Position numbers and translations under genes: made by a program
NCBI GenBank assembly: GCA_001871475.1
Contig: MNVE01000016.1
Location: forward strand, 197,343-261,342
Length of the DNA: 64,000 nt
From: Candidatus Micrarchaeota archaeon CG1_02_47_40
GTDB taxonomy: Archaea; Micrarchaeota; Micrarchaeia; Anstonellales; CG1-02-47-40
Reading direction: 5' to 3'
The notes under the pieces: generated by a model
The model's database searches: none
What the model was told of the DNA's origin: nothing
The model's input: only the letters and a program-made list of their open reading frames with translations
Shown here: piece after piece, positions 11,807 through 64,000 of the stretch
Layout of the letters: the number at the start of each line of letters is the position of its first letter
Position numbering within the stretch: position 1 is the first letter of the stretch

Positions 11807-12583
11807 ATGAAAGTTGAGCAGTATATTCACGAGAGAATTGCAAAGCAGGGAGCTATGCTCTTTTGCTTGATTGACCCGCTGGATTATCCTTCTTTAGAAG
11901 AGGCAATAAAGGCGGGAGTTGCTTCTGCAAAAGGAGGAGCAGATATAATTCTGGTCGGGGGAAGCATGGGGGTGCAGGGAGAGGCGCTGGATAAGGTGGT
12001 GAAGGGAATTAAGGAGAAAATCTCCGTTCCTTTAGTGCTTTTTCCCGGAAATATCACTACTTTCTCAAAATATGCGGATGGAGTTTATTTCATGTCAATG
12101 CTGAATTCAAGGAATCCGTATTGGATTACTGGAGCGCAGACTTTGGCAGCAGGAGAGGTTGCAAAGAGCAAGGTGGAGGCATTGCCTGTTGGTTATATTG
12201 TAGTGGAGCCTGGAGGAACCGTCGGCTGGGTTGGGGATGCGAAATTAATCCCAAGAGGAAAGCCCAAAGTGGCTGCTGCGCTTGCGCTTGCAGGGCAGTG
12301 CATGGGATTTAGGATGATACTCACGGATGCTGGAAGCGCGCCAAAGGAAGGGCATATTCCCGAAGAGATGGTAAGGGCGGTCGCGGGAGTGCTGAAGGTG
12401 CCTTATATTGTAGGGGGAGGAGTTAGAACACCGGAGCAGGCAAGAAGAGTGATTGCCGCAGGAGCGGATGCAATACAGGTGGGAACTGCGCTTGAAGAGA
12501 AGGGAGGAGTAGAAGAGAAAGTGAAGGAACTAAAAAAAGCGGTGCTGGAAGGGGCGAAGGAGAGAAAATTTAAGAAATGTTAG
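11807..12583 (+). CDS. geranylgeranylglyceryl phosphate synthase (PcrB/GGGPS family)
   Basis: Contains GADIILVGGS and a C-terminal phosphate-binding VGGGVRTPEQARRVIAAGADAIQVGT motif. Archaeal ether-lipid enzyme. The start was moved to MKVEQY to avoid overlap with the upstream gene. Confidence 0.8.
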   Translation: MKVEQYIHERIAKQGAMLFCLIDPLDYPSLEEAIKAGVASAKGGADIILVGGSMGVQGEALDKVVKGIKEKISVPLVLFPGNITTFSKYADGVYFMSMLNSRNPYWITGAQTLAAGEVAKSKVEALPVGYIVVEPGGTVGWVGDAKLIPRGKPKVAAALALAGQCMGFRMILTDAGSAPKEGHIPEEMVRAVAGVLKVPYIVGGGVRTPEQARRVIAAGADAIQVGTALEEKGGVEEKVKELKKAVLEGAKERKFKKC

Positions 12584-12631: not shown

Positions 12632-13276
12632 ATGGAAATCCCCCTGCAGAACAGATTGAAGAAGAAAGCGCACGTAGAGTTGGCTAGTTTGCAGGATGAG
12701 GCGGTTGAGATTATTTACTCTCTTTTTCCCAAAATAGTCTTTCATGGAGGAACCTGCATCTGGCGCTGTTATGGGGGAAACCGCTTTTCGGAGGATTTGG
12801 ATTTTTATCTTGCGGGTGAGAATTTTGAGGAAGGAAGCTTAAGGCAGGCGCTTGAGGGAAGGGGGCTTTCGCTTGTAAAATTCAAAAAGACGGCAAATCT
12901 TATTTTCGCAAAAATTTCCTCCCCTGAAGCGCAAATAAGGCTTGAGATAAACCTTTCGACAAAAAAAGAGGGACTGCTGCGCCCCTATGAAAAGGCTGGC
13001 GGCGCCGTTATGGAAGTGCTGTGCCTGCCTGCGGAAGAGCTGCTGATGGAAAAATTGTCCGCATATGAAAACAGAAGGCTCGTGCGGGATTTGTATGATG
13101 TGTGCCATTTGAGCAGGATTGCGAATGTGCACGAGAAGGAAGCGGGAAAAATAAAGAAATTCCTGCAGAATCCGCCAAAACCGATTGATGAAAAAAATCT
13201 GAAGGCGATTGTGTATATGGGAGCGGTTCCGACTTATGAACAGATGCTTGAAATGCTGCGAGGCAGATTTGCATGA
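12632..13276 (+). CDS. nucleotidyltransferase, AbiEii/AbiGii toxin family (DUF1814)
   Basis: Contains the DUF1814 NTase core GGTCIWRCYGGNRFSEDLDFYL. Its stop codon overlaps the start of the next gene. Confidence 0.7.
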   Translation: MEIPLQNRLKKKAHVELASLQDEAVEIIYSLFPKIVFHGGTCIWRCYGGNRFSEDLDFYLAGENFEEGSLRQALEGRGLSLVKFKKTANLIFAKISSPEAQIRLEINLSTKKEGLLRPYEKAGGAVMEVLCLPAEELLMEKLSAYENRRLVRDLYDVCHLSRIANVHEKEAGKIKKFLQNPPKPIDEKNLKAIVYMGAVPTYEQMLEMLRGRFA

Positions 13277-13866
13277 AATACCTAAAGGAATTCAGGGAAA
13301 GGTTTGCAAAAAGGGAAGTATTCACGTCGCGGGATGTAAAGATGTATCTTGGGGAAATGGGGGCATCGGATGAGTATGTAAATCTGCTTCTGCACAATTT
13401 GGTGAAAAGAGGGGAGATAAAGAGGATAAAGAAGGGCGCATACACTTTTTCGGATGAGATAACTTGTGTGGGGTTCGCGTATTCTCCTTTTTATTACGGA
13501 TTGCAGGACGCGCTTTCGGTGCATAATTTATGGGAGCAGGAAGCAAATCCGATAGTGATTACTCCAAGGAGAGTCAGGCAGGGGATGCGCTCTTTTGAGG
13601 GAAGGAATTATCTGGTTAGGAGAATTGAAAGAAAGATGTTTTTCGGATTTGGGCAGAAAAAATGTTCGGGAAGGTTTCTGCCGGTTTCGGATATGGAGAA
13701 AACTTTGATTGATTTTTTTTATTTCAGGGAGAGGCTGTCCGGGGAAGTGGTGAAGGAGATGAAGGGGAAGGTGAAGAGGAAGGTGCTTGAGGAGTATTTG
13801 AAGAGATGCCCGAAAAGGATTGCGGGAATTGTTAAAAATGCACTGCGCCATAAGGCAGTTGAATAG
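13273..13866 (+). CDS. AbiEi-like antitoxin / transcriptional regulator (wHTH)
   Basis: The N-terminal wHTH (FTSRDVKMYLG...LVKRGEIKRIKKGAYTF) is typical of the AbiEi/COG5340 family. It is translationally coupled to the NTase gene. Confidence 0.55.
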   Translation: MKYLKEFRERFAKREVFTSRDVKMYLGEMGASDEYVNLLLHNLVKRGEIKRIKKGAYTFSDEITCVGFAYSPFYYGLQDALSVHNLWEQEANPIVITPRRVRQGMRSFEGRNYLVRRIERKMFFGFGQKKCSGRFLPVSDMEKTLIDFFYFRERLSGEVVKEMKGKVKRKVLEEYLKRCPKRIAGIVKNALRHKAVE

Positions 13867-13872
13867 GAGGTT

Positions 13873-15477
13873 TTGCCTATGCCAAAAACGGAAAAAGATA
13901 TTTTTGTCTGCGACACTTCAGTAGTGGTGGATGGAAGGGTAGTTGAGCTTGTTAGGGAAGGGAAAGTGAAGGGAGTAGTAGTAATACCGAATGCTGTTCT
14001 TGCGGAGCTGGAGCATCAGGCAAATGCGGGAAAAGAAACCGGGTTTGCGGGATTGGGGGTTTTGCAGAAATTAAAGGAAATGCAAAAAGAGTTTGAGATA
14101 GAAATACAGATGAGGGGCAGCAGACCGTCTCCCTCGCAGATAGAGTATGCGAAAAGAGGGGAAATTGATGCGGAAATAAGAGGGATGGCTGCACTGCTTG
14201 GGGCAACGCTTATTACAGGGGATACGGTGCAGAAAGAAGTGGCGCTTGTGGAGGGGGTGAAAACACTCTACCTTCACACGCACGAGGTAGCAAAGGATTT
14301 GAGCTTCAAGAAGTATTTCGCTGAAGGGACGATGTCGGTGCATTTGAGGGCAGGCGCGATTCCGATGGCGAAAATAGGAAAGCCGGGAGCTGTGAAGCTT
14401 GTTCCCTGCGGGGAGGGAAAGCTGACTACTGATGATGTAAAGAAGATGGCAACGGAAATAGTGGAGGCAACGGAGAGGAATAAGGAGTATTATTTTGAAA
14501 TAGACAGGAGGGGAGCGGCAGTCATACAGATGGGAAGGTATAGGATAGTGATTACAAAGCCTCCTTTCTCTGATGGGTTTGAAATAACTTTAGTAAGACC
14601 AGTAATGAGCAGGAAAATTGAAGAGTATAAGATGAGTGAGAAACTAAAGGAAAGGCTTTCAAAACAGGCGGAGGGAGTTATAGTGTGCGGCCCGCCCGGA
14701 AGCGGAAAAAGCACCTTTGCGGCTGCGCTTGCGAATTATTACTCCTCCTTGGGAAAGATAGTGAAGACAATGGAATCGCCAAGGGATTTGCAGGTAGGGG
14801 ATGAGATTACGCAGTATGCTCCGCTGGAAGGGAAATTCGAGCTTACAAATGACATAATGCTGCTGGTGCGCCCTGACTATTCCATATATGATGAGATGAG
14901 AAAAACGGATGATTTTGAAGTGTATGCGGATATGAGGATGGCTGGCATTGGATTGGTGGGGGTGTTGCACGCAAACCGCACGATAGATGCTGTGCAGCGC
15001 TTCATAAACCGCATTGACTTGGGAGTGATTCCGCAGGTAGTTGATACGATAATAATGATTAGAGGAGGGGAAGTGGCGCAGGTGTATTCAATGAACTTCA
15101 AGGTGAAGGTGCCAACTGGAATGGTGGAAGAAGATTTGGCGCGCCCTGTAATTGAGGTAAAGGAGTTTGAAACCGGAAAGCTGGAGTATGAAATTTACAA
15201 ATTCGGGGAGGAAACGGTTGTTTTGCCTATTTCGGAGGAGATGGAGAAGGCAAGCGCGCGCGCTTCAGAGCCAATTGATGAGGAGGCAGCTGCGCAAAGG
15301 ATAGAGAAGGCGCTTGGAAGGATTGTAAAGCACGGGTATGAGCTTGAGTTTAGGGGAAGAAAGGCAGTCATACACGTGCACAAGAAGGATATACCAAAAA
15401 TTATCGGGAGAGGCGGAGAGAATATCTCGCGCATTGAAAAGGAAGTAGGAGTAAAAATTGACGTGAAGGAGATATGA
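13873..15477 (+). CDS. PIN domain - P-loop ATPase - KH domain protein (COG1855, PilT-like ATPase)
   Basis: The N-terminal PIN (IFVCDTSVV..D) is followed by a Walker A motif (CGPPGSGKST) and a C-terminal KH domain (IIGRGGENISRIEKEVGVKIDV). Confidence 0.75.
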   Translation: MPMPKTEKDIFVCDTSVVVDGRVVELVREGKVKGVVVIPNAVLAELEHQANAGKETGFAGLGVLQKLKEMQKEFEIEIQMRGSRPSPSQIEYAKRGEIDAEIRGMAALLGATLITGDTVQKEVALVEGVKTLYLHTHEVAKDLSFKKYFAEGTMSVHLRAGAIPMAKIGKPGAVKLVPCGEGKLTTDDVKKMATEIVEATERNKEYYFEIDRRGAAVIQMGRYRIVITKPPFSDGFEITLVRPVMSRKIEEYKMSEKLKERLSKQAEGVIVCGPPGSGKSTFAAALANYYSSLGKIVKTMESPRDLQVGDEITQYAPLEGKFELTNDIMLLVRPDYSIYDEMRKTDDFEVYADMRMAGIGLVGVLHANRTIDAVQRFINRIDLGVIPQVVDTIIMIRGGEVAQVYSMNFKVKVPTGMVEEDLARPVIEVKEFETGKLEYEIYKFGEETVVLPISEEMEKASARASEPIDEEAAAQRIEKALGRIVKHGYELEFRGRKAVIHVHKKDIPKIIGRGGENISRIEKEVGVKIDVKEI

Positions 15478-50785: not shown

Positions 50786-52123
50786 TATAGTGCTAAATAC
50801 TGAAAGGTGAATGGTGTTTTAGTAAATAAATGTGGAAAATGGGCTCATGAGTGCTAGATTGATGTTTCCGTTCAAGCCGCATATGTTTGTTGCGATGTTC
50901 ATGTTCCTGTTTATAGTATATGCAGTAATGCAGAATGAATGGAAGGTGCGCGTCCTGATGCTTGTTCCGGTGACTGTGCTTTTTGTGGTGTTTGTAGCCG
51001 CCTTTGCCTGGGGGGTTAGGGAGGTTTCGGCGGAAGCGGTGAGAGAGTATAAGAAGAAGGAGAATGCGAAGGGAAGAGGGATTGCCACAAAAGCTTTATA
51101 AACAGACCGCGCCATAAACACTGCTACCGAATTTTAACGGTAAATGAGGGGCAGAACCTGGTTTTGCCCCCCTGGATGGAATGAAACCCTTAGGGGGTTC
51201 CATCTGCTGTGGAAATCCGAAGCTTTCGGATTTGACTTGCGCTTCAAGTGGAAAAAAAAGACAAGCAGCAAAATAGAATTGCTCCTTAATGCAATTCCCT
51301 TAAGAAATAAGGAAATGAACTTTTGCAACTCCAGTTGATCCTGCTGGAGGATACTGCTATCAGAGTCCGACTAAGCCATGCAAGTCAGCCCGCAACCATT
51401 GCGGACGGCGTAAGGCTCAGTAACACGTAGTCAATCTGCCCTTTGGACGTGGACATCCTCGAGAAATTGAGGTTAACCCGCGATAGGCCATCTATGCTGG
51501 AATGCTTGATGGTTTAAAGGTGCGCGCGAATTGGAGTGCGCACGCCGGAGGATGAGACTGCGGTTGATTAGGTAGTTGGTGAGGTAACGGCTCACCAAGC
51601 CGATAATCAGTAGGGGCGATGGGAGTCGGAGCCCCGAGAAGAGCACTGAGACAAGGGCTCTAGTCCTACGGGATGCAGCAGGCGCGAAACCTCTGCAATG
51701 CGCTAAAGCGTGACAGGGGGACTCTGAGTGGCGGAGAACTTAGTTCTCCGTCTTTTGACAAGCTTAGATGGCTTGTAGAATAAGTGCTGGGTAAGACCAG
51801 TGCCAGCCGCCGCGGTAATACTGGCAGCACAAGTGGTATCCACGAATATTGGGTCTAAAGAGTTCGTAGCTGGCTTGCTAAGTTCACTGTGAAATCTTGG
51901 AGCCTAACTCCAAGGCGTGCAGTGAATACTGGCAGGCTTGAGAGCGGGGGAGGCGTGGAGTACTTACGGGGTAAGGGTAAAAAGGAGAGTATTGAATGCC
52001 GTAATGCGCAATACTTTTCATTATAATCTCGTAATCCTGTAAGGACTCACAGTGGCGAAGGCGCCACGCCAAAACGCGTCTGACAGTGAGGAACGAAGGC
52101 TAGGAGAACAAATCGGATTAGAT

Positions 52124-52837
52124 TTGGAGCTAGGGAAACGCTAATAAATAACAACGGATTGATAGAATTATGAGATTAGAGCGCCGGGTAAGAGACCTCG
52201 TGAGTAAGCAGAAACGAAAGCCGCTTATGAAGGTTAAACTTCCAGTCGAAACAAGCCCAGAACTCTGTAGAGTGCTTGGCATTCTACATGGCGATGGGAA
52301 TATGTCTGGAAGACGAGTTTTGCTAACCGACGAAAACAGGGTGTTCCACAGAACGATACATAAACTGTTTAAAACGGTTTTTGGAATTAGGATGAATCTG
52401 TTTCACGACATAAGAAGAAATTCGTATTACAGTTATACGAAAAGTGTCTTGGTGTATCGTTTTTTGAACGAAATAATGGAAATGCCCTGCGGTCCAGTAA
52501 GACAAAATCTGAAGATTCCGTCTTATATGGAAAAGCTTGGTTTGAAACACCAAGCAGAGTATGTTGGCGGACTCTTTGACGCTGAAGGATGCGTCAAAAC
52601 AAGACAGGCCGAACTCAACCTCTCATCTACTTCAAAGAATATCTTCAAGTTTATTGGAGGGTTTTTGAAGAAGATTGGGGTGACGTACAGTACGTATGAG
52701 AGGAGAAGGCACAAAAATCCGGAATATGAGATATATGTTTATGGAAAAGACGACTTGAAAAAATTTTCAAGATATGTTTCTTTTTTGCATCCGTTGAAAA
52801 TGAAAAAGATGGCGAAATTTCTTTAGCTCCACTAAAA
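52124..52837 (+). mobile_element. 16S rRNA intron 1 (after GGATTAGAT, E. coli ~790 region) encoding a LAGLIDADG homing endonuclease
   Basis: The exon breaks after GGATTAGAT and resumes at ACCCGAGTAGCCC. The intron ends TGGAGCTA...TAGCTCCA are complementary (BHB-like stem). Confidence 0.7.
52170..52826 (+). CDS. LAGLIDADG homing endonuclease (double-motif) encoded in 16S intron 1
   Basis: Motifs LGILHGDGN and VGGLFDAEGCV. 218 aa. Confidence 0.75.
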   Translation: MRLERRVRDLVSKQKRKPLMKVKLPVETSPELCRVLGILHGDGNMSGRRVLLTDENRVFHRTIHKLFKTVFGIRMNLFHDIRRNSYYSYTKSVLVYRFLNEIMEMPCGPVRQNLKIPSYMEKLGLKHQAEYVGGLFDAEGCVKTRQAELNLSSTSKNIFKFIGGFLKKIGVTYSTYERRRHKNPEYEIYVYGKDDLKKFSRYVSFLHPLKMKKMAKFL

Positions 52838-53010
52838 ACCCGAGTAGCCCTAGCAGTAAATGATGCAGACTGTGGTGTTGCGTCAGCCTAGAGCTGGCGC
52901 AGTGCTGTAGCGTAGACGGTGCGAGTTTGGGTAGATGCGGATAAGATGCAGCAAACGCGCACCGGCGGAAGTCTTAAGTCTGCCACCTGGGGAGTACGAT
53001 CGCAAGATTT

Positions 53011-53052
<42 letters not shown>

Positions 53053-53461
53053 GCTGCGGTTCAATTGGATACAACGCCGGGAATATTACCAGAAGAGACG
53101 GCAGAATGATGGCCAGACTGAAGATCTTGCCTGACAAGCCGAGAGGTACTGCACGGCCATCGTCAGCTCGTGGTGTGAACTGTCCCGTTAAGTCGGGAAA
53201 CGAGCGAGACCCTTATGTACTGTTGCCAGCTTTCCTTTGCAGGAAGGCGCACTCTGTACAGACTGCCCGTGTTAAATGGGAGGAGGGAGAGGGCGACGAT
53301 AGGTCAGTATGGTCTGAATCTTCTTGGGCTACACGTGGCTTACAATGGCTGGGACAATGGGCAGCAACTCCGAAAGGAGAAGCGAATCTCACAAACCCAG
53401 CCCAAGTTCGGATTGAGGGCTGGAACTCGCCCTCATGAAGCTGGAATCCCTAGTAATCGCT

Positions 53462-54233
53462 TGTCAACAATCGAGGCAATCTAGCGAAATGTTTATATTG
53501 TTAGCCGCATTTATTCTTGCGGTTAACAGTATGGAAACTAACTGGAAGAAGAATCCCAAATTGCTACAGAAGATAAGGGCATCGTTAGGATTTTCTCAAA
53601 TAAAATTTGCGAGGTTTCTTGGAACGAAGCAAAGCACTTTAAGCGCTCTTGAGCGGGGCGCGATAAAGACGGTTTCTGAAGAAGCCGCCGAGTGCTTTGC
53701 CAAGAGGCTAAAAGGTGTGAAAATTGCATTTATGACTGAAAATGAAATGCAACGGAAACTTTTGCAAATATCGCAAAGAGGAAAGTTCAAGGGAGAATAT
53801 GCAAGAAGTATGGCCCTTAAAGTACATAGTAAAAATGCAGTTGAGAGTGCAAAATCCCAACCTCTTACAAAACAGGAGGAAAGGATAAATACACTTTTGA
53901 AGGAAAGCGGACTGCGCTATGAGGCTCATCCCGCAATTGACGCGGGGGGCATTTCTTTCGTGGCAGATTTTAAGGTAGAAAAAAATAGATGGATGATTCT
54001 TATTGAGGCTAAAGAATTTAGGACGAAATATAGATTGAAAGCGCCTATATGCGAACTTGCATACAAGGCTACGCGGATAAAACGCTTCAATAAGAATGTG
54101 ATGATGGTTGCAGTCGTAAGCGGAAGACTTATGCAATCTGAGAAAAAGATTCTTTCGGATGAGTTTGACGCTGTTTTTGAAGATGAAGGAAAAATATTAG
54201 AATTCGTAAATAGATTGCCTTGAGTGAACTCGA
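53462..54233 (+). mobile_element. 16S rRNA intron 2 (after CCTAGTAATCGC, E. coli ~1350-1360 region); boundaries +/-15 nt
   Basis: The exon sequence ...GAATCCCTAGTAATCGC is interrupted and resumes at ...GCGGTGAATACGTCCC. It encodes a non-LAGLIDADG ORF. Confidence 0.65.
53489..54223 (+). CDS. intron-encoded HTH (XRE-type) plus PD-(D/E)xK-like nuclease-fold protein (putative novel homing endonuclease)
   Basis: HTH_3-like LQKIRASLGFSQIKFARFLGTKQSTLSALERG. The C-terminal AIDAGGISFVADF...WMILIEAKEF gives a D...ExK arrangement. The ORF-track start at 53435 lies in the rRNA exon, so the start was moved to an internal Met. Confidence 0.5.
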   Translation: MFILLAAFILAVNSMETNWKKNPKLLQKIRASLGFSQIKFARFLGTKQSTLSALERGAIKTVSEEAAECFAKRLKGVKIAFMTENEMQRKLLQISQRGKFKGEYARSMALKVHSKNAVESAKSQPLTKQEERINTLLKESGLRYEAHPAIDAGGISFVADFKVEKNRWMILIEAKEFRTKYRLKAPICELAYKATRIKRFNKNVMMVAVVSGRLMQSEKKILSDEFDAVFEDEGKILEFVNRLP

Positions 54234-54400
54234 GCGGTGAATACGTCCCCGCTCCTTGCACACACCGCCCGTCAAATCACCCAAACGAAGTTTTGGTGAG
54301 GCTTTGCTTCTTGGCAGACCCGAACCAATTCGTCGCGAGGGGGGTTAAGTCGTAACAAGGTATCCGTAGGGGAACCTGCGGATAGATCACCTCCAATATA

Positions 54401-54466
54401 TTTTATCTTCGGATAAAATTGAGGAATAACAGCATGCGAAGTGCGCAAAGGAAGCCGATGTTTTTT
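54401..54466 (+). terminator. hairpin (TTTTATC-TTCG-GATAAAA) and oligo-T tract immediately after the 16S 3' end
   Basis: A TTCG tetraloop hairpin at 54401-54418 is followed by TTTTTT at 54461-54466. Confidence 0.4.
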
Positions 54467-54571
54467 ACTGTTCTGTCTATTCCATTACTTGAAGCGCAAA
54501 TTTTGTATTTTTTTATTTTGATTAGCGCAAGCCTTACGTGTTTAAATTAACCTTTACTGCAAAATCCCTTC

Positions 54572-55045
54572 ATGAAAATCAGCTTAACTCCGGAACTCTC
54601 TTACCTGATAGGGTTATGGCAGGCAAGGGGAAGCCAGGAGGGAGTAGGAATTTGCGGAAACAGGAGAGTGTGCGAAATCTTCCTTGAGGAAGCGCTGAAA
54701 ATCGGGATTGCAAAACCGGATAAAATACAGCTTAAGGAGGATAAGATATATTTTTACCATTCGGCTTACCGCGCGTTTTTTGAGGAAGTGCTGAAGGAGA
54801 GGCTTGAGAGGTTTAAGTACAAAAATGAGTTTGCCGCGCAATATTTGGCAGGTGTTTTTGACGGGTGCGGGGGGATTTTGGAGGATGGGAAGGGTGTGTT
54901 TTTTGCTTGCGGAAATAGGGAGGATGAAATGCTTTTGCTTCGCCTTGGGTTTAAGGCAAAAAAAGTCGGGAAGAGGATTATTGTGATTGGAAAGGAGGAG
55001 TTTTTGGGTTTTGTGAGCAAGTATTTGAAATATTTTGAATGGTGA
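54572..55045 (+). CDS. free-standing LAGLIDADG-like protein in the 16S-tRNA spacer (first motif degenerate)
   Basis: The second motif is YLAGVFDGCGGI. The first motif, YLIGLWQARGS, has lost the acidic residue. 157 aa. Confidence 0.5.
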   Translation: MKISLTPELSYLIGLWQARGSQEGVGICGNRRVCEIFLEEALKIGIAKPDKIQLKEDKIYFYHSAYRAFFEEVLKERLERFKYKNEFAAQYLAGVFDGCGGILEDGKGVFFACGNREDEMLLLRLGFKAKKVGKRIIVIGKEEFLGFVSKYLKYFEW

Positions 55046-55326
55046 GAAAATGCAACACCTGATGCGTTTTGATGCTGGTGCGTTCGCAAGGAGAATTGAA
55101 AAGATAGATATTGAAAAGTTGATGTCTTACGAAAATGCGCTTAGGGTGCGGATGAGATTCAGTCTTTCCAAGCCGCTGTCAGCACAGGAGGGAGAGAATG
55201 GGCGGGTAATCGCACGCTGGCGGCTGGTAGAGGAAGAGATTGGAAAAAGAAACGGAAAATGAGCAATTCGTGACAAACTTTTATAAATAAAAAGAAAGAA
55301 AATGTCTTTACAAACAATAGCGATTT

Positions 55327-55389
55327 GCAATGAGGGCTTTGTAGCCAGCTCATTGCAAAAATTTGAAAATCGCTCTGCGCGATTTTCAA
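55327..55389 (+). other. two adjacent perfect hairpins in the rRNA spacer
   Basis: GCAATGAG-(15 nt)-CTCATTGC spans 55327-55356. TTGAAAATCGC-TCTGC-GCGATTTTCAA spans 55363-55389. They are preceded by TTTTATAAATAA at 55280. Confidence 0.5.
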
Positions 55390-55531
55390 ATGAGGTGTAG
55401 AATTATGAACGGCGGGTGTTTTAGCATTAAGCAGAAAGGGTGGTGCGTTTTCTGAAGCGAAAGTAAGGAAGGAAAGCTCTAATTCTGAAAAGTCTTTAAG
55501 GGGAAGGAAGTGTTCTTTGAATGTTGAAGAA

Positions 55532-55672
55532 ATGCAGCAGTTAGTGAATACTGCATGCTCCAAATATTACTCCCTGCGGGAGCTTGGGGAAATGTTCGGG
55601 GTTTCGCGTTCTTCTGTGTGCAGGGCGCTGGAAAGGGCGGAAAGCCTGGGAATTGCCCCGCTTATTCTCTGA
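55532..55672 (+). CDS. 46-aa HTH peptide resembling a resolvase/sigma-r4 C-terminal HTH (possible gene remnant)
   Basis: MQQLVNTACSKYYSLRELGEMFGVSRSSVCRALERAESLGIAPLIL. In-frame stop 12 codons upstream, so this is not part of a longer ORF. Confidence 0.25.
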   Translation: MQQLVNTACSKYYSLRELGEMFGVSRSSVCRALERAESLGIAPLIL

Positions 55673-55958
55673 AATAAAAAAAATGATGTGATGAAGAATG
55701 GCTGAAATGAAGCCAGTAATACGGAAAAACGATTCAGGAATAAATTTCTTCGGCGCGGGACCCGGGGCGAATAGGTTTAGGAGAATCCGGCTGCCCCCGC
55801 CAGATGGGATAATGAAGCTGCCGCAAACCGCGAGTATTGCCAACGCAAAGGCAAATGAAGTGAAAGGAGCGCCATCTGAATGTTTTTACTTCGCGCCCTT
55901 TTGAGGGCGCGGGCAAAACCCTCCCCCTTTATTAACCTGTTTTGACAAAGAATACCAT

Positions 55959-57047
55959 ATGAATAGATTGCATAGATGTGTTGTTTCCATAGGGGGGGCG
56001 GGAAGGGACGGGATTGCCTGGATAAAGAAAATGCCAGCCGTGATTTTTCCTCCATTTCATCCGGCAAACTGGAAAAAACCAAGAAAGGGACGCTTGCCAG
56101 TTATTTCTGCGCCTCTTGCAGAAGATCTCTCTCGCCAAAAACCTGCGCATGTTCCTTTTTTCAGGCATGGCGGCGCCCCTAGAATACTGTCTGAACAGCA
56201 GTTCCTGAAGAACGAACCTTCTCCTTTTGCGGAAGGGCTGGAAAAGCAGGCGGAAGCGTATAATGGACTGGTCTTTGGCATTGCAAGCAGGCTTTGCGAA
56301 GAAAGGGCGGATGAAAAAAAGGAAATTGACGCTCTCCGCATGATTGTAAAGAAGATACGGAGAACCGTCAAGGTTGCGCATGACGCCGGGGAGCCTTTCC
56401 TCTCGGAATCGCTTGAAAGGGGAAATTGGAGCGCGGATTCGCTTGCGTTTCTTCTTTTTGACGTCTGCAGGAGCCTTAGGCTGGAGCCTAGAATGATTGA
56501 CACCCCGAACGGGCTGTTTGTGGCAAACGGAAAATTCGTGATTGACTCGGTTATGCTGCAGGTTATTTCGCGCAAAAATTTTGATGCGGAAAAACGACAC
56601 GTCTGCCGTGAGACTTCGGATGCGGTTGAAATGCAGTATCTTCATCATATGCACATTGCCTACGCAGGGGTTAAGGGCGATTTCTGGGGGGCGGTCAGGG
56701 AAGCCGATAGGGCGGCGAAGCTGAACCCGAACTGCGCCTGCGCGCAACTTGCGAAAGCCATGTTTTACGGGGAGGCGGGGGATTTTCGGAATGCCCTTGC
56801 ATGCTACAACAAGGCGCTGGAAATTGCGCCAGAAGAGGAAACCCTTATTCACGCGCGGGCTGTTTTTTTTGAGAAATTCGGCTGTTTTGAGGATGCGGCA
56901 GGCGGATATATGCGGCTGGCGCGGGCGCATCCGGAAAACTTTTCGTATAAGTTTATGCTTTATTATGCGCTGAAGCAGCTTGAACGCCTGCGCCGGGGGA
57001 GCTCGGATGCGGGCGGGCAAGAGGGGCGGAAGGCGCAGACCGCTTAG
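55959..57047 (+). CDS. hypothetical protein with C-terminal TPR-like repeats in a compositionally atypical (G+C-richer) segment
   Basis: Sequences AKLNPNCACAQLAKAMFYGEAGDFRNALACYNKALEIAPEE and FEKFGCFEDAAGGYMRLARAHPEN are TPR-like. Both strands carry a 362-aa ORF here; the plus strand is the protein-like one. Confidence 0.35.
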   Translation: MNRLHRCVVSIGGAGRDGIAWIKKMPAVIFPPFHPANWKKPRKGRLPVISAPLAEDLSRQKPAHVPFFRHGGAPRILSEQQFLKNEPSPFAEGLEKQAEAYNGLVFGIASRLCEERADEKKEIDALRMIVKKIRRTVKVAHDAGEPFLSESLERGNWSADSLAFLLFDVCRSLRLEPRMIDTPNGLFVANGKFVIDSVMLQVISRKNFDAEKRHVCRETSDAVEMQYLHHMHIAYAGVKGDFWGAVREADRAAKLNPNCACAQLAKAMFYGEAGDFRNALACYNKALEIAPEEETLIHARAVFFEKFGCFEDAAGGYMRLARAHPENFSYKFMLYYALKQLERLRRGSSDAGGQEGRKAQTA

Positions 57048-57086
57048 CTTTCTTTTTTAAACTCTTTTCAACAAAATATAATTAGT

Positions 57087-57223
57087 GGGCTCGTGGCGCA
57101 GCGGTAGCGCGCGTGCTTTGCAGTTGAGCAAGAGACGTCTTCTCAAACAAAAAAGCACGAGGCCGTGGGTTCGCGCCCCTAAAATTTTATTTTGGAGGCG
57201 GCTCAAAAATCCCACCGAGTCCA
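57087..57223 (+). tRNA. tRNA-Ala(UGC) with a canonical 37/38 intron (~30 nt) and a probable second intron in the T-loop (~34 nt)
   Basis: Acceptor GGGCTCG/CGAGTCC (G3:U70 Ala identity pair). D arm GCGC-AGCGGTA-GCGC. Anticodon stem CGTGC/GCACG with loop TTTGCA-[intron]-A. T stem GTGGG/CCCAC with loop TTC-[insert]-AAAT. Discriminator A. No encoded CCA. Confidence 0.55.
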
Positions 57224-57227
57224 CTTT

Positions 57228-57698
57228 TCATATCTTTATCTGATTTCCGCCATTGTCTATCGTGTAGTCTGAGTCGAACTTCTCAATCGCAAAGAGGATT
57301 TTTGCAAGCGTTTCCTTCCTGTTTCCGAATTTTGCCTCCGCGAGCGCATTCCTTATTGCTTCGCACAGCTTGACTATTCTGCCGGCTTCGTTCGCAAAAG
57401 ACGTGTCGGTTTGTGCCAGCTCTTTTTTCAGATTTTCAATTTTCGCCCGCAGTTTTCTTGTTTCTGCAGTTTCTCCGCTTTTTTGAGTGAGTTGCCGTAT
57501 GCGCCCCGGCACGCGGCATTTTCCCCCAACGCCCGTTTGGTGCGGCTCCGGTGCGGGCTTTATGCCGAAACGAATTCTTCTGCTTGTGGTTTCCCCGCCA
57601 GCTGTTTTTTGCGTGGAATGGCTCCATTTGTTATGCGCAGTTAATTTAGTCATGAATATCACCTGTGTTAGATTATGCACAAGCGTATTTATAAGCAT
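57228..57698 (-). CDS. hypothetical coiled-coil protein encoded antisense in the tRNA-23S spacer
   Basis: The C-terminal half (RKLRAKIENLKKELAQTDTSFANEAGRIVKLCEAIRNALAEAKFGN) is protein-like. A TATA-like TTTATAAAC lies ~38 nt upstream of the internal Met at 57698. Confidence 0.25.
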   Translation of the reverse strand: MLINTLVHNLTQVIFMTKLTAHNKWSHSTQKTAGGETTSRRIRFGIKPAPEPHQTGVGGKCRVPGRIRQLTQKSGETAETRKLRAKIENLKKELAQTDTSFANEAGRIVKLCEAIRNALAEAKFGNRKETLAKILFAIEKFDSDYTIDNGGNQIKI

Positions 57699-59912
57699 TG
57701 TCTTTTTGCGGGAAATTGGAGAAACCCCCAAGAAAGGTTTATAAACAAATCTCTGCTTAACATATGCCACCCTTTTGAGCCGGAAAGTTAAAGGAGAGGC
57801 TTAAACATCAGCGTCCCTCGTGAAGGGGTTGCGATGCATGAATTATCACCCCTTAGGGTAGGTAATCTCAAACGGGTTGACGCATCCTGATGTTTTTGGG
57901 AGCGGATTCCAAGAGTATGAAGAAAAGTCGCATTTACAAAGTAGTAGAAGAAAGGATATGATATGTTTGTTACTGCCGGGCAGTGGATAGCTTGGCTTGG
58001 GCAAAATGCGGATCGTGGCAAGCTGCGAAATGCTCGGGGTAGGCGCAGGCAGCCTGTAATCCCGAGGTAATCCGTTTAATACGCGGGGAATCGAAACATC
58101 CTATTACCCGCAGGAAGAGAGAACAATTGTGATTTGGTAAGTAAGGGCGACTGAAAGCCAAAAAGGGCAACCTGAATACCCAACTGTAAGGTTGGGAAGA
58201 TGTGGGGCCGCCAACAACGCAAGTTGTTGGGCTGTGCTCGCAAGAGCACTTAAGTAACATCCGCCGCACTAGGGGAAGCTCCTGAAAAGGGGCGCCAAAG
58301 AGGGTGAAAGCCCCGTACCCGAAAAGCAGGCGGAGAAAGGCACAAAGAGTAGCGTCCATTGAGTATTGGACGCAAATATGGCGGTATCGATCGCCAACCC
58401 TAAACATACCCCAAGACCGATAGCGAAGAAGTAGCGCGAGCGAAAGCTGAAAAGGACCCCGAAAGGGGTGTTAAAAGAACTTGAAACTGTCCGGCTACAG
58501 TTTGATGCGGCATGAAAGCGTTAATATCTCCCGAAGCTACCGACCGAAAGGAAGGGTGCGAGGGGGATTCAGCGGTGTCGCATCCTCCTTCTATAAGCAA
58601 GGGCCAGGGAGTTTCTACCTGCGGCAAGGCGAGAGCCGGAGCGAAAGCGAGTGCGAAAGCGCGAAACAGTCGTTGGTAGCAGACCCGAAGCTGATGTGAG
58701 CTATACGTGGATAGGGCGAAGCCGGCCTGACGGCCGGTGGAGGCCCGCAACCAGTGCTAGTATATTCTGCTTGGGTGATCTACGTATAGGGGTGATAGTC
58801 CAGTCGAACTCAGCAATAGCGGGCTCCCCCCGAAGTATATCTCAGTATAGCGCCGCGGGAGTTGTTGCGCAAGGTAGAGCACTGATCGGAGAGTACGGGC
58901 CCGAGAGGGCTCACTTTCTTGTCAAACTCCGAATTTGCGCAAAACGAAGAACGCGGCAGTAGGCTTCTCTCGGGTAAGCCGAGAGGACTTTACGGGAACA
59001 ACCGGTACCGCGGTTAAGGTCCCAAAATTCTGGTTAAGTGTGACTCTCAAGGGGTCTCCAGTCTAAGACAGCTGGAAGGTAGGCTTAGAAGCAGCCATCC
59101 TTCAAACAACGCGTAATAGCGGACCAGCCGAGATTGCGGACCCCGAAGATGCTCGGGGCTAAATCAGATACCGATACCGCGGAATGGCGCACTGTTAGGT
59201 GCGCGCAATTTGGTAGGGGGGCGAACCGGTCGGGCAGAAGCGCGGGTGTGAACTCGCGTGGACCGGCCGGCTATGAAAATCCTGGTATTAGTAGCAGCAT
59301 ATCCAGGCGAGAATCCTGGACGCCGAAAGTACACGGTTTCCTTGGCCATGTTCTTCAGCCAAGGGTAAGGCGATCCTAAGCACGAGGCTAATTGCCAACT
59401 GTGCAAAAGGGAAACCGGTTAAAATTCCGGTCCCGGATAGATAGGCGCGGCAACGCATGATGCGTTCCTGACGTTTTGGGGTAGGTGCAGTGGAGGAGAC
59501 TCCATTTAAGCAAGATAAGCCTTCGGAGACTCATTGTGAGGAGAAGAAGGCTAAATTTGCGAGCGGCCGCACGGTTGCGCCAAGCCCCGGAGCCCTTGAA
59601 AAGGGAACGCGTAACGATTCTATCCGACCGTACCTAGAACCAGTACAGGTGATACTGGCAGAAAAAGCCAAGGCGTGGCAGGACAACTCTCGTAAGGGAA
59701 CTTGGCAAGTTAGTGGCGTAACTTCGGGATAAGCCATGCCTGCGGGCCTTTGCGGGCCTGCAGGTCTCAGTAACAAGGGGAGACCGACTGTTTACCAAAA
59801 ACACAGGTCATCGCAGAGCCGAAAGGCTAAGTACGATGGCCGATGCCTGCTCACTACTGGTACGTTAAACTCCGGTTCAACGGAGCAAAGCGCCAGCAAA
59901 GAGCGGGGGTAA

Positions 59913-60504
59913 TCGTCAGTTCCAATTTTAAACATCAAATGAGCTTGGTTCCATATGCAGAAGTTTGAGGAGTATTTTATAGGCGCACTTCAAGATGCGT
60001 ACGTCGATGAAAAGCGCAATGAGATTCAGCTGTACCAAAAGAATAAGGAATGGCTCGATTTTATTAATGCCAATCTTAAGAAAGATTACGGCATTACTGG
60101 AAAGATTTTCAAAAGAGACGTTTACTTGCTTAGAAAAAGAAGCAAAGCGTTTGTTTTGAAAATTAAAGAGGCAAAAACTAGAATGAATTCTTTTGGCGCG
60201 GATTTCGTCGCAGGGCTTTTTGATTCGGAAGGTTCTGTTTACCTTTCAACAAAATCAAAAATACCCATCATTGATGTAACGCAATCCGAAAAAGGATTGG
60301 AATATCTTAAGTGTGCGCAAAAAATTCTTATGGAGAATGGGATTGATTCGAAACTGAATGGCCCATATAAACATAAGCATGGAAAACTCCTGCAATATCA
60401 TCTGCGCATATATGGAAATAAAAAATGTGGGATATTTTTTAGGTTAATTCCCATTTATTATAAGAATAAGTTTGAGAAATGCTCATTTTGAACTGACGAC
60501 CCCA
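59913..60504 (+). mobile_element. 23S intron 1 (between GGGGGTAA and ACTCTGACCCTCTTA; E. coli ~1915-1925 region)
   Basis: Flanked by complementary TCGTCAGTT...AACTGACGA. Contains a single-motif LAGLIDADG ORF. Confidence 0.7.
59955..60491 (+). CDS. LAGLIDADG homing endonuclease (single-motif, homodimer type)
   Basis: Motif FVAGLFDSEGSV. 178 aa. Confidence 0.7.
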   Translation: MQKFEEYFIGALQDAYVDEKRNEIQLYQKNKEWLDFINANLKKDYGITGKIFKRDVYLLRKRSKAFVLKIKEAKTRMNSFGADFVAGLFDSEGSVYLSTKSKIPIIDVTQSEKGLEYLKCAQKILMENGIDSKLNGPYKHKHGKLLQYHLRIYGNKKCGIFFRLIPIYYKNKFEKCSF

Positions 60505-60703
60505 CACTCTGACCCTCTTATTTGGCTCTTGCAAGAAATTGCCGGAGCTGATGTGAGATAGGTAGCGTAATACCTCGCCGCTTAATTGGTGGCTTGCATG
60601 AATGGCATAACGCGTCTCCCACTGTCCCTACGAGGGACCTGGTGAACCTACTACTCTGTGAGTATGCAGAGGACTTCTAGGGGGAAACGAAGACCCCGTG
60701 GAG

Positions 60704-61467
60704 TTGGAAACTACTCTCTACCACCGGAAAACTACCGTCTCGGGAGGTTTATAAACAAGGAGAAACGAAAGGGAAAACATATGTTTGAACTTTCTCCCTT
60801 GCTTGCCTACGAGACAGGTGTCCATCTTGGTGACGGAAACTTGACGTACAATAAAAAATGGAACCTTTACAGAATAACTTACGCAGGAAATTCGGAAACG
60901 GATTCCGAATTTTTTGAGTGCGTTCTTCCAAAATTGATTTTCGAAGTTTATGGAAAACGGGTGCGGATTTATCATCCAAAGGGCGAGAAAACCGTTCTTG
61001 TTGTCCTAAACTCAAAGGAAATCGCAAGGTTCAAAATGGATGCGCTTGGGCTTCCTTCAGGAAATAAAAATCAGCTGAAGGAATTTCCAAGGAAGCTTAA
61101 GGAAAAATATCCTGCAGATATTGTACGAGGTTTGGCAGACACTGATTTCTGTCTTTATTTTAAGGATAGGAATAAGGATGGAATTGCCGAGATTCCGATT
61201 ATTGAAGGGTGCTTCTCAAACGAAGCGTTCTGTTCGGAAATCTCGGGGATACTTTTCAGATTGGGGATATTGCATTCTACGCGCAAGGTTGTTTCGCATA
61301 ATAAATATGTGGAACACCGAATACGCGTTGAGGGCAAAGGTCAGTTTTGCAGATGGATGGAAAAAATCGGGTTTTGGAATCCGAAACATCTTGCAAAAGC
61401 AGATGATTATTTTGGGAATTTTCCGGCAGAGTTTTAATTTTTTTAAACCAGTTTCCGACGCGGATAG
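60704..61467 (+). mobile_element. 23S intron 2 (after GAAGACCCCGTGGAG; E. coli ~1950 region)
   Basis: The exon resumes at CTTTACTATAGCCTG. The flanks TTGGAAACT...CCAGTTTCC are complementary. A TATA-like GGTTTATAAACAAGG lies ~25 nt before the HE start. Confidence 0.7.
60781..61437 (+). CDS. LAGLIDADG homing endonuclease (double-motif)
   Basis: Motifs LAYETGVHLGDGN and IVRGLADTDFCL. Start at MFELSPLL; the upstream part of the ORF is rRNA exon. Confidence 0.75.
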   Translation: MFELSPLLAYETGVHLGDGNLTYNKKWNLYRITYAGNSETDSEFFECVLPKLIFEVYGKRVRIYHPKGEKTVLVVLNSKEIARFKMDALGLPSGNKNQLKEFPRKLKEKYPADIVRGLADTDFCLYFKDRNKDGIAEIPIIEGCFSNEAFCSEISGILFRLGILHSTRKVVSHNKYVEHRIRVEGKGQFCRWMEKIGFWNPKHLAKADDYFGNFPAEF

Positions 61468-61631
61468 CTTTACTATAGCCTGCTGTTGAGATACGGTGAT
61501 GGTCGCGGAGCGTAAATGGGAGCCGTTACGCTGCATCTTTCGGGGTGCAGATAGGCGACATTGTAACACCATTCGATCGTTATTGTATTTCTTACCGGAA
61601 GGGACCGCGGCAGGTGGATAGTTTGGCTGGG

Positions 61632-62364
61632 AGTCCGAAGATTTAAGGAAAACAGGAATCAAGCAATGCGTTCTTTCTCACGCCGAGATTCTTGGAACGG
61701 GAGTCGGAAATGCGACTCTCGTCCAGAAATCTGACTTTGGTTGAGAAAATGGAAAGCGAGCGCTTGTCATAAACGCGAAGCCCGTGCGTTGAATGTGAAA
61801 CTCTGATGCCCAAGCTTTCAAAGCAGTTTGAAAGTTGGCTGCGCAGATGAGGATTATAGCATGCGATGTCGATGACTCCGCGCGGATGCGAACGGTCTAT
61901 GGAAATTGAACCGTCGCAGGAGCAGTATGCGCGTAAAAATGCGCATGTAAAAGATTTGGAGAGAAGAATGCTGTTTGGAATTTTGCATTTGGGATGTGTG
62001 CCGTCCGCAAACGGAGCAGTCCTGAATGTTGAAGCTTCCGAAAGCAGTTTTTTTGCGATTGGCACCGAGAAAAACCTCGCTGATTTCGCAGAACCGCAGC
62101 GGTTATAGGAGAAATTTCTTTTTCCGAATTCGCAATTAGTGATGTGCCTGAAATAGTCAAGCATTCCTTCAACAGTATTGGTGAATTGGATGCAGTATGT
62201 CCGTTTTGACTTGTCAAAATAGAGTGAACCGTCTGAAAGAAGCATTGCAAATAGTTGTGCTAAATTTTCGTTCATAATAAAACGAAATGTTTTTTGTTTA
62301 TAAGGGTGCGCAGGGAGTAGAAGTCCGCACCCTCCGATTCCTGCTTACATCTTCGGACCAGCAA
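61632..62364 (+). mobile_element. 23S intron 3 (after GTTTGGCTGGG; E. coli ~2065 region) carrying its HE gene on the opposite strand
   Basis: The exon resumes at GCGGTACATCCTCGATAAGGAAACAAGG. Flanks GTCCGAAGAT...ATCTTCGGAC are complementary. A hairpin GGGTGCG-(15 nt)-CGCACCC lies at 62303-62333. Confidence 0.65.
61643..62275 (-). CDS. LAGLIDADG homing endonuclease (double-motif) encoded antisense to the 23S rRNA
   Basis: Motifs LLSDGSLYF and LRAYCSCDGSIS. 210 aa. Its own TATA (CTTATAAACAA) lies ~28 nt upstream on the minus strand. Confidence 0.7.
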   Translation of the reverse strand: MNENLAQLFAMLLSDGSLYFDKSKRTYCIQFTNTVEGMLDYFRHITNCEFGKRNFSYNRCGSAKSARFFSVPIAKKLLSEASTFRTAPFADGTHPKCKIPNSILLSKSFTCAFLRAYCSCDGSISIDRSHPRGVIDIACYNPHLRSQLSNCFESLGIRVSHSTHGLRVYDKRSLSIFSTKVRFLDESRISDSRSKNLGVRKNALLDSCFP

Positions 62365-62632
62365 GCGGTACATCCTCGATAAGGAAACAAGGATGCCCAA
62401 TGTTCAGCTTAGGTGCGTTAGAAATGCACCGTTAAGGGTAAAGGACAAATGCTGGACTGACTGTGTTCCTAATAGCATGGGACGCAGAGGCGAAAGCCGG
62501 GCCTAACGAACCTTGGCACCCTTTTGATGAGGGTCCAAGCTGTCAGACAAGCTACCCCGGGGGTAATTCCACCGGCGGAGTTTTTTGATTAACTGTCAGT
62601 GGAACTCCATACAGGCTCGTCGCGGGCGAGAG

Positions 62633-62880
62633 ACAAATCTCTCCCGATTTTTAATTTAAGGACGATGCTTAAAGGTGTCTTCTATTCTCTAAAGTATTTT
62701 CTGCATTGATATGCAATAGCAAACCCGGCATTCGGGTTTGCTAGCTGTGCCGCACGAAAAGCGTGCGGCACTAAAAAGAAACATCTGGGATACTAAAGGA
62801 TAGTTGAACCTTTAGGCTAGTGTAAGGTTTTCGATACGAAAACTATATCGTCTGGTTTATGGGAGGCATTTGCTCAAATA
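62633..62880 (+). other. 23S intron 4, ORF-less structured intron (between GCGAGAG and CCCATCGACCCCGCGG; E. coli ~2449 region)
   Basis: About 248 nt with no ORF. Internal hairpins include AAACCCG-GCATT-CGGGTTT and GTGCCGCACG-AAAAG-CGTGCGGCAC. Confidence 0.55.
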
Positions 62881-63000
62881 CCCATCGACCCCGCGGTTTG
62901 GTACATCGCTGTCGGCCTAGGTCATCCTGGCGGTGCAGGAGCCGCCAATGGTTGGGTTGTTCATCCATTAAAGACCTACACGAGCTGGGTTCAGAACGTC

Positions 63001-63731
63001 AAGTTGGGCGTTGCTAGGCCGCAAGGCCTTGATAAATAAAATTGGCTCATATCGGTGAAACCTCGCTTTAAAAATATTGCAGACCGCAATGTTTGCAAGA
63101 AAGCGTGGCAATACCGAGGGAAGGCGAGATTTGTGGATTCAACAATGCTTGCGTATATCGCAGGGTTCCTTGATGGAGATGGCAGTATCTTCTTTCAGAT
63201 AGTCAGAAGAAAGGACTACCGTCGGAAATTCCAGATAAGAAGCAGCGTTGCTTTTTATCAGAAGACGGATTCGTGCCGCATTTTAAAGTGGCTCAAGGGA
63301 AGATTGAAAGCGGGGTATATCCGCCATCGCAAAACAGGAATCAGTGATTATACAATTGTCGAATCAAAAGAGGTGGAAAGGATTCTTTCCATTCTACATC
63401 CGTACGTGAAACTGAAGAAAAGACAGCTTGAACTTGGTTTGAAAATTCTGCGCAAACTCAAAAAATCACAAAGCAATAAGGATTTTCTTGGAGTTTGCAG
63501 GCAAGTTGACAAGTTTAAGCTGTTGAATTATTCCAAGAAAAGGACAGTGACATGTTCGGTCGTAAGCAAATCTTTGCCCCTGTAGAGACTGAGGCAGAAG
63601 TGGTCCTGAAAGGAACACGAAAATGCCGAGAGTCCTGCCAAAGGGCAGGGCTAAGACGCCGATCTCCCATGCAGCAAGCGTGGGATGGTGGTATAGTCCA
63701 TGCCATTCCGAAAGGAATGGATTAAACATGC
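63001..63731 (+). mobile_element. 23S intron 5 at the I-CreI homing site (CAGAACGTC^GCGAGACAGTTCGG; E. coli ~2593)
   Basis: The exon breaks after GGGTTCAGAACGTC and resumes at GCGAGACAGTTCGGT. Confidence 0.75.
63055..63585 (+). CDS. I-CreI-family single-motif LAGLIDADG homing endonuclease
   Basis: MLAYIAGFLDGDGSIFFQI...AGYIRHRKTGISDYTI...LKKRQLELGLKIL...DFLGVCRQVDKFKLLNYSKKRTVT parallels I-CreI (LYLAGFVDGDGSI...GYVRDRGSVSDY...KFLEVCTWVDQIAALNDSKTRKTT). The functional start is probably the internal Met at 63145. Confidence 0.8.
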   Translation: MKPRFKNIADRNVCKKAWQYRGKARFVDSTMLAYIAGFLDGDGSIFFQIVRRKDYRRKFQIRSSVAFYQKTDSCRILKWLKGRLKAGYIRHRKTGISDYTIVESKEVERILSILHPYVKLKKRQLELGLKILRKLKKSQSNKDFLGVCRQVDKFKLLNYSKKRTVTCSVVSKSLPL

Positions 63732-64000
63732 GCGAGACAGTTCGGTAGTATCTCCTAGGAGTGTTTCCGCCTGAGAGGAAGAACCCTTAAGTACGAGAGG
63801 AACTTGGGTTCGGCGCCTCTGGTGTACCAGTTGTGCAAAGCACCGCTGGGCAGCTACGCGCTATTGGATAAGACCTGAAAGCATCTAAGGTCGAAGTCAA
63901 TCTCAAAACGAGGCGGATTGGGCGGTCGTAGCAGACGACTTTGATAGAAGGGGGGTGTAAGAGCTAAGCGCAAGCGAGGCTTTCAGCCTGTCCCTTACTA

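Follow-up and report, generated by a model that had tools for sequence, protein, structure and literature searches.

The textbook archaeal rRNA operon has a spacer tRNA-Ala without introns, which is freed from the rRNA precursor; crenarchaeal rRNA operons are not known to contain a spacer tRNA. The closest described counterparts of the interrupted gene reported here are the disrupted tRNAs of ARMAN-2 (Candidatus Micrarchaeum acidiphilum), which carry T-loop and multiple introns, together with the epsilon2 endonuclease (EndA) of that organism, which cleaves relaxed BHB motifs (Fujishima et al. 2011, PMC3239211; PDB 4FZ2). Among them, tRNA-Pro(GGG) is interrupted at 53/54 and 59/60, and tRNA-Cys(GCA) has an hBH motif at 59/60. 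Variants of the EndA specificity loop are widespread in DPANN (PMC5829648). Within the Thermoproteales (TACK), three introns, at 25/26, 37/38 and 56/57, interrupt the tRNA-Pro(UGG) of Pyrobaculum islandicum (Sugahara et al. 2007, cited by PMC4090602), and 56/57 is already listed as an intron site (PMC4090602). Ectopic T-arm introns are also known from nuclear tRNAs of Cyanidioschyzon merolae (PMC9602550, PMC3728597).

We analysed a stretch of 64,000 nt of DNA (hereafter the window) that contains a tRNA-Ala(UGC) gene between the 16S and 23S rRNA genes. The gene order and strand are those of the canonical archaeal 16S - tRNA-Ala(UGC) - 23S operon; unlike in that operon, the tRNA gene has two introns, lies 2.7 kb past the 16S and has promoter-like and terminator-like signals of its own. 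It shares with ARMAN-2 the phylum, the combination of canonical and T-loop introns with more than one per gene, relaxed BHB motifs that need a broad-specificity EndA, and a disruption that makes standard tRNA finders miss the gene. It differs from ARMAN-2 in the isoacceptor, tRNA-Ala(UGC), in the position between 16S and 23S, in the 56/57 site with its HBh' motif, and in the host, which belongs to a lineage of neutral-pH groundwater and shares only 71-90% 16S identity with the sampled relatives at the compared loci (blastn). The P. islandicum gene, as described in PMC4090602, resembles ours in combining 37/38 and 56/57 introns and in having relaxed HBh'/hBH motifs at non-canonical sites. It differs in its lineage (Thermoproteales, TACK), its (alpha-beta)2 EndA, its three introns and its different isoacceptor; nor is a link to the rRNA operon expected, as spacer tRNAs are not known from crenarchaeal operons. 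The genes of C. merolae likewise combine BHB-dependent T-arm introns with anticodon-loop introns; their host and endonuclease are eukaryotic and the lineage is unrelated. The first-pass annotation of the window had proposed a tRNA-Ala(UGC) split by introns in the anticodon loop and the T-loop, and this is borne out by the conservation of the exons, by covariation that spans the inserts and by BHB-type motifs located exactly where the junctions require them. On these three lines of evidence, we consider it very likely that the tRNA-Ala(UGC) gene is functional and that both of its interruptions are BHB-type introns spliced by proteins.

The gene occupies window positions 57087-57223 (+) and comprises three exons (36, 19 and 17 nt) and inserts of 31 and 34 nt, in the order GGGCTCGTGGCGCAGCGGTAGCGCGCGTGCTTTGCA (31 nt) AGCACGAGGCCGTGGGTTC (34 nt) AAATCCCACCGAGTCCA. 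Direct reading and ARAGORN assign to exon 1 (57087-57122, +) the acceptor 5' strand, the D-arm, the anticodon stem 5' strand and loop positions 32-37, with the anticodon UGC at 57119-57121 (+). Intron 1 (57123-57153, +; 31 nt) sits at the canonical position 37/38 and has a strict hBHBh' motif. Exon 2 (57154-57172, +) contains position 38, the anticodon stem 3' strand, the variable loop AGGCC, the T-stem 5' strand GUGGG and U54, U55 and C56. Intron 2 (57173-57206, +; 34 nt) lies at T-loop position 56/57, between UUC and AAAU, and has a relaxed HBh' motif. Exon 3 (57207-57223, +) provides T-loop residues A57-U60, the T-stem 3' strand CCCAC, the acceptor 3' strand CGAGUCC and the discriminator A73; CCA is not encoded (direct reading, ARAGORN). 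The insert sizes and sites had been anticipated as about 30 nt after position 37 and about 34 nt within the T-loop, and the present coordinates make them exact. When spliced, the 72-mer gave a perfect tRNA-Ala(tgc) cloverleaf in ARAGORN, with 7/4/5/5-bp stems and 7-nt anticodon and T loops. U33, anticodon UGC, A37, G3:U70 and discriminator A73 are all present in the spliced tRNA, in agreement with the canonical cloverleaf that had been read from the letters. Of the alanine identity features, G3:U70 is invariant in all 10 distinct homologues, and UGC and A73 are read directly.

Detection of the gene depended on the removal of the inserts. No correct tRNA was called by ARAGORN on the unspliced DNA, with or without intron mode and also at a lowered threshold. 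When insert 1 alone was left in and intron mode was on, ARAGORN still recognised the tRNA and reported a 31-nt intron in it; when insert 2 was left in, it found no tRNA match. On the Rfam tRNA model the native gene scored 22.9 bits, against a threshold of 29, and the alignment borrowed a false 3' acceptor strand from insert 2. Standard tRNA finders therefore miss this gene because of its two short introns, in the anticodon loop and the T-loop. A scan at a permissive threshold found no further tRNA-like fragments in the first 51.4 kb of the window. Through contigs bearing the 362-aa ORF that neighbours the tRNA gene, we reached four independent assemblies, namely ENA ERZ909571 (240 kb), Logan SRR5036775, JGI 3300004208 and NCBI GCA_002762955.1. 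The last of these is Candidatus Micrarchaeota archaeon CG11_big_fil_rev_8_21_14_0_20_47_5 (NCBI; taxid 1974421, DPANN, phylum now called Microcaldota). The 137 nt of the tRNA region agree byte for byte in all four assemblies, so the region is not an assembly artefact.

Relatives were collected by a pattern scan of metagenome contigs, which yielded 23 loci; Rfam split a bacterial group, adjoining bacterial 23S, from the archaeal loci. A pattern scan of a genome collection with the degenerate GGGCNNNTGGCGCAGCGGTAGCGC gave mostly actinobacterial matches and none archaeal among the matches listed. A 157-aa ORF from the 16S-23S spacer, used as a query for orthologous loci, led to L154 and L160, and its homologues led to no further 56/57 orthologue. 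All 72 exon bases are the same as in the window in L007, L154, L136 and L141. In the orthologous gene of L007 (L007:1709-1870), the flanking DNA is 66-81% identical to that of the window and the neighbouring TPR protein is 50% identical; its anticodon-loop insert is 56 nt long and unalignable with the 31 nt of the window, and its T-loop insert equals the 34 nt of the window except for GCTC -> GCCT (32/34 identical). L154, a third close relative, has a 116-nt anticodon-loop intron and an unrelated 85-nt T-loop insert at 59/60. L136 (2346-2558) and L141 (minus strand, ~1341-1601), both with a compact 16S-23S spacer, are without the anticodon-loop intron and carry T-loop inserts of 141 and 189 nt respectively, apparently at 59/60, a register that is not unique there; Rfam mis-calls these two genes as 69-nt tRNAs of 38.7 bits. 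Among the other archaeal loci, T-loop inserts of 30-48 nt occur in L129, L145, L133 and L147, a 37/38 intron only in L128, L132 and L134, and no intron in L130, L135, L143, L146, L148 and L160, which scored 72-76 bits on the Rfam tRNA model where scanned. Across the genes with identical exons, the anticodon-loop intron thus measures 31, 56 or 116 nt or is missing, and in the T-loop there is a 34-nt intron at 56/57, one of 85-189 nt at 59/60, or none. To test for transposition, we looked for further copies of the two introns in the window and all archaeal loci; only the orthologous L007 copy was found. Judged from these alignments, the inserts are dispensable and turn over fast, which is intron-like behaviour.

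Covariation was examined in an alignment of 10 distinct spliced homologues in which cloverleaf pairs were counted. Results showed that 99% of cells form standard pairs and that seven stem pairs have two-sided changes. Some of these pairs belong to the anticodon stem and the T-stem and span an insert; in the T-stem, covariation across the insert is seen at 49:65 and 50:64. The observed covariation score was reached in 0 of 500 shuffles, and slid controls gave 35-55% pairing. By this comparative measure, the three pieces are parts of one selected tRNA. A chance resemblance of the exon-like pieces to a tRNA is next to inconceivable, as the low specificity of BHB scans is all that speaks for it; it is refuted by exons identical to those of bona fide orthologues and by the 72-76 bits that intron-less versions reach on the Rfam tRNA model. 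Another reading takes the locus as a decaying or disrupted pseudogene whose work is done by a separate intact tRNA-Ala(UGC) elsewhere, and can point to the failure of standard tRNA finders on the gene and to the abundance of mobile elements in the window. We regard it as highly improbable, since conservation of 72/72 exon bases against 66-81% in the flanks, conservation of the promoter-like block, a pairing-preserving change in the intron 2 splice helix and the maintenance of every stem by covariation across homologues all argue against decay.

The first-pass annotation had suggested a search for BHB motifs at both junctions, and the outcome was a strict motif at the first and a relaxed one at the second. 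We took the BHB register from PMC4090602, in which the central 4-bp helix lies at 32-35 and the cut falls after the second base of the 3-nt bulge. Intron 1 has a strict hBHBh' motif, in which h is the 5-bp anticodon stem and H is formed by UUUG (57117-57120) with CAAA (57148-57151). CA|G and AA|A form its bulges, and UUGAG/CUCAA, with one extra A, forms h'. Its helix lengths are H=4, h=5 and h'=2 (5 if a 1-nt bulge is allowed). For intron 2, H is formed by G51, G52, G53 and U54 (57167-57170) with GCUC (57201-57204), i.e., two G-C and two G-U pairs; the 5' splice bulge is UC|G (57171-57173) and the 3' cut falls within AA|A (57205-57207). Its h' pairs CGCC (57174-57177) with GGCG (57197-57200), and a 7-bp hairpin lies further in. 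The outer helix of intron 2 is a single U50-A58 pair, which falls short of the strict BHB definition; with H=4, a 3-nt 5' bulge and h'=4, the motif conforms to the relaxed HBh' definition (PMC4090602, PMC3239211). In L007, the change of GCUC to GCCU turns G51-C and G52-U into G51-U and G52-C, and all four H pairs are kept.

In shuffled versions of intron 2, H=4 together with h' of at least 4 occurred in 0.17% at the fixed junction and in 0.7% in any register, and in shuffled versions of intron 1 the BHB features occurred in 0.95%. A bare BHB scan of the 137 nt gave about 47 candidate motifs, so a BHB motif alone is weak evidence; because the unrestricted scan is nonspecific, the weight rests on the coincidence of the motifs with the tRNA-defined junctions. 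The structure-defined cuts at both introns give exactly 7-nt loops, with the T-loop reading UUCAAAU, as in L136, L141 and L154. A group I intron was considered for these inserts and rejected, since they are just 31 and 34 nt long, against more than 200 nt for group I, and 51300-64000 holds no RF00028 match at E<=1.

The run of five A's makes the 3' junction of intron 2 ambiguous from the letters alone, and both inserts could be introns with the T-loop one cut in another register, at 57/58, which would give the loop UUCGAAU, or at 59/60, the site used in most relatives. Among the homologues, UUCGAAU occurs more often than any other T-loop, and the 59/60 register would leave the 5-bp T-stem as the outer helix, with H=3. 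When the eight registers that restore a 7-nt T-loop were compared, H=4 with h'=4 was found only at 56/57; the 57/58 register has H=1 and h'=0, and the 59/60 register has h'=0 and a loop UUCGCGU without A58. Four relatives with identical exons have the UUCAAAU T-loop. We consider a cut in one of these other registers quite unlikely.

Removal of the 34-nt T-loop insert has also to be weighed against its retention, by which the mature tRNA would carry an extra hairpin in an expanded T-arm. In the minimum free energy (MFE) fold, the T-stem is kept and insert 2 forms a self-contained hairpin; the insert keeps 32/34 positions in L007, where intron 1 cannot be aligned with that of the window, and the BHB motif of the insert is of the relaxed form only. 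Essentially all tRNAs keep the T54-A58 and G19-C56 elbow contacts, and a retained insert would break both by parting C56 from A57-A58. Relatives with identical exons have a different insert elsewhere in the T-loop, or none, which is unexpected for a functional expansion, and the structure-defined cuts of insert 2 restore exactly 7 nt. In our estimate retention is decidedly unlikely. The predicted energies of the BHB folds are as follows. The T-arm BHB conformer lies 1.8 kcal/mol above the local MFE, and in the ensemble of the free RNA the intron 2 helix H has a probability of 0.24 versus 0.55 for the T-stem. The double-BHB fold lies 5-9 kcal/mol above the global MFE. The exact H register of intron 1 has a predicted probability below 0.01 and is disfavoured because the A-run allows slippage. 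As modelled, the folding energetics are permissive, not decisive.

From these features we infer the signals for transcription, the cleavage and ligation themselves and the identity of the enzyme, in the following pathway. Transcription would probably start from the gene's own TATA-like promoter and end at the T-run. EndA would cut intron 1 at 57122|57123 and 57153|57154, in both 3-nt bulges of the strict hBHBh' motif. At intron 2, the T-stem 5' strand G51-U54 would pair with the intron's GCUC and not with its usual partner; the 5' cut would fall at 57172|57173, in the UC|G bulge beside the CGCC/GGCG helix, and the 3' cut at 57206|57207, two bases past the central helix in the open A-run. An RtcB-type ligase would then join the three exons, so that the T-stem could form and the loop UUCAAAU be restored. 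CCA would be added, and AlaRS would read G3:U70. A broad-specificity EndA, of the epsilon2, (alpha-beta)2 or loop-bearing alpha4 type, would be required because the T-loop motif is relaxed, and an enzyme of strict specificity is not expected to cut it. Given the phylum, and by analogy with ARMAN-2, this enzyme is most likely the three-unit epsilon2 EndA. A Pfam scan of 39 window ORFs revealed no EndA (PF01974). A query with the ARMAN-2 epsilon2 EndA, mostly rebuilt from the PDB alignment, gave more than 1400 protein matches, and all 120 of those listed are 368-406 aa long. The named matches are mostly labelled Micrarchaeota, and none among the 120 listed is labelled as the window's genome.

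The conservation of intron 2 between the window and L007 (32/34) exceeds the expectation for a freely evolving intron. Both changes preserve pairing, while the anticodon-loop introns are unalignable and the flanks are 66-81% identical, and on these grounds the intron might have some separate function. The central helix of its motif and the T-stem are in direct competition (0.24 vs 0.55), which would suit a selected checkpoint of folding or maturation; alternatively, the excised intron might yield a stable, possibly circular, functional small RNA. We put forward such a role as an unlikely but conceivable addition to splicing.

The 16S rRNA gene upstream (Rfam) extends over 51328-54395 (+), with its 3' end corrected by blastn against relatives and reading of the terminus. 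One 16S intron lies at ~52124-52837 and contains a LAGLIDADG ORF (52170-52826). The Rfam 16S 3' end at 53558 was rejected as an alignment artefact, as relatives join window position 53469 directly to 54230. The true terminus ...GATCACCTCC lies at 54384-54395, and a longer reading, ...GGAACCTGCGGATAGATCACCTCC, ends at 54395. Relatives without the segment and the true terminus at 54395 together identify ~53470-54229 (~760 nt) as a further 16S intron; it lies just upstream of the GGTGAATACG region and carries an HTH_3-domain ORF (53435/53489-54223). The 23S rRNA gene (57974-64000, +) is ~6 kb long against 2958 positions of the Rfam model, and its inserts contain LAGLIDADG ORFs. The rRNA inserts amount to ~1.5 kb in the 16S and ~3 kb in the 23S, and the LAGLIDADG ORFs of the 23S region are at 59955-60491, 61643-62275 (-) and 63055-63585. 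No strict BHB was found at the two homology-defined 16S junctions, and no Rfam group I match in 51300-64000. Group I introns have been reported in rRNA genes of Crystal Geyser Micrarchaeota (PMC6125680). The remaining window genes are ordinary archaeal housekeeping genes, e.g., RFC, Cdc6, GGGP synthase, Rpo7 and Sua5. An IS605 OrfB/TnpB-type transposase (Cas12f-like TNB domain) and an AbiEii/AbiEi toxin-antitoxin pair were seen at 490-1707 (-) and 12632-13866 (+).

The gap between 16S and 23S, from 54396 to ~57958, measures 3.56 kb and holds conserved protein genes in addition to the tRNA, which follows behind them, 2.7 kb past the 16S end. The 157-aa ORF (54572-55045) shows LAGLIDADG-like motifs by eye and has no Pfam match; it belongs to a conserved Micrarchaeota family with 49 homologues, which usually adjoin an AIRS gene, away from rRNA. 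The other is the TPR protein gene (55959-57047); in L007, a homologue 50% identical to it is encoded beside the orthologous tRNA. A TATA-box-like element, TTTTTTAAA, was read directly at 57053-57061 (+); its centre is ~30 nt ahead of the tRNA's 5' end. L007 and L154 both conserve the block CTTTTTTTAAACTCTTTTCA, other flanking DNA being 66-81% identical, and most archaeal homologues have A/T-rich boxes at about -30. We infer from this that TTTTTTAAA is the tRNA's own archaeal promoter. The T-run CTTTTC (57224-57229, +) directly follows the discriminator and would be an archaeal oligo-T terminator; T-runs also follow the tRNA gene in L007, L154, L129, L133 and L143. The conserved TATA-like box, the T-run and the conserved protein genes between 16S and tRNA argue for separate transcription, and the tRNA-Ala(UGC) gene probably forms a transcription unit by itself. 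Between the tRNA and the 23S, a 180-aa minus-strand ORF (57228-57770) takes up most of the gap; it has no significant Pfam match and does not resemble the ORF that follows the tRNA in L007, so it may be spurious.

In L136 and L141, the layout is compact, with the tRNA ~250 nt after the 16S and 560-620 nt before the 23S, and because these two loci keep the 16S-tRNA-23S arrangement, the gene in the window is a spacer tRNA by position and ancestry. The placement inside an rRNA spacer that the first-pass annotation had assigned to it therefore holds for position, between 16S and 23S on the same strand; as for transcription, the 3.56-kb gap with protein genes and a tRNA that is probably its own unit set it apart. 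The note had also called such a double-intron tRNA notable, which overstates the case, as 56/57 was already a known intron site (PMC4090602). Our literature search found no publication on an intron-bearing tRNA-Ala between 16S and 23S in DPANN. Since disrupted tRNAs and an epsilon2 EndA are known in the phylum and 56/57 is a known position, the tRNA-Ala(UGC) with two introns is a new instance and not a new kind, and the understanding of how archaeal tRNA introns work is unchanged by it.

The gene matters in practice for annotation. As ARAGORN and Rfam miss it and Rfam also mis-calls truncated versions in relatives, automatic annotation would score the window's genome and several related Micrarchaeota as being without tRNA-Ala(UGC), and such a false absence would bias inferences of completeness and codon usage for DPANN genomes. 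The identical mature tRNA, with a T-loop intron at 56/57, at 59/60 or none and with or without an anticodon-loop intron, also forms a compact natural series that serves the study of BHB intron gain, loss and turnover and of the substrate range of epsilon2-type endonucleases.

Several further observations were made at the comparison loci. An Anstonellales relative (L151-L153:5740-5885) has a tRNA-Met(CAT) with a 71-nt anticodon-loop intron (ARAGORN intron mode). The bacterial tRNA-Ala(UGC) genes of L131, L137-L140, L144, L149 and L150 lie upstream of bacterial 23S and have the exact archaeal-looking D-arm GGCGCAGCGGTAGCGC. Group I introns were seen in the 23S of L144 and at 6633-7393 of L149, between its 16S and 23S matches. 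In L154, the tRNA-Ala 3' end with its trailer (GAATCCCACCGAGTCCATTTTATTTTTCTT) recurs as a 30-nt direct repeat (12288-12317 and 13958-13987) on both sides of a 1.65-kb insert; the insert encodes a SLFN_AlbA_2/HATPase_c_4 protein and has the appearance of an element that integrated at the 3' end of the tRNA.
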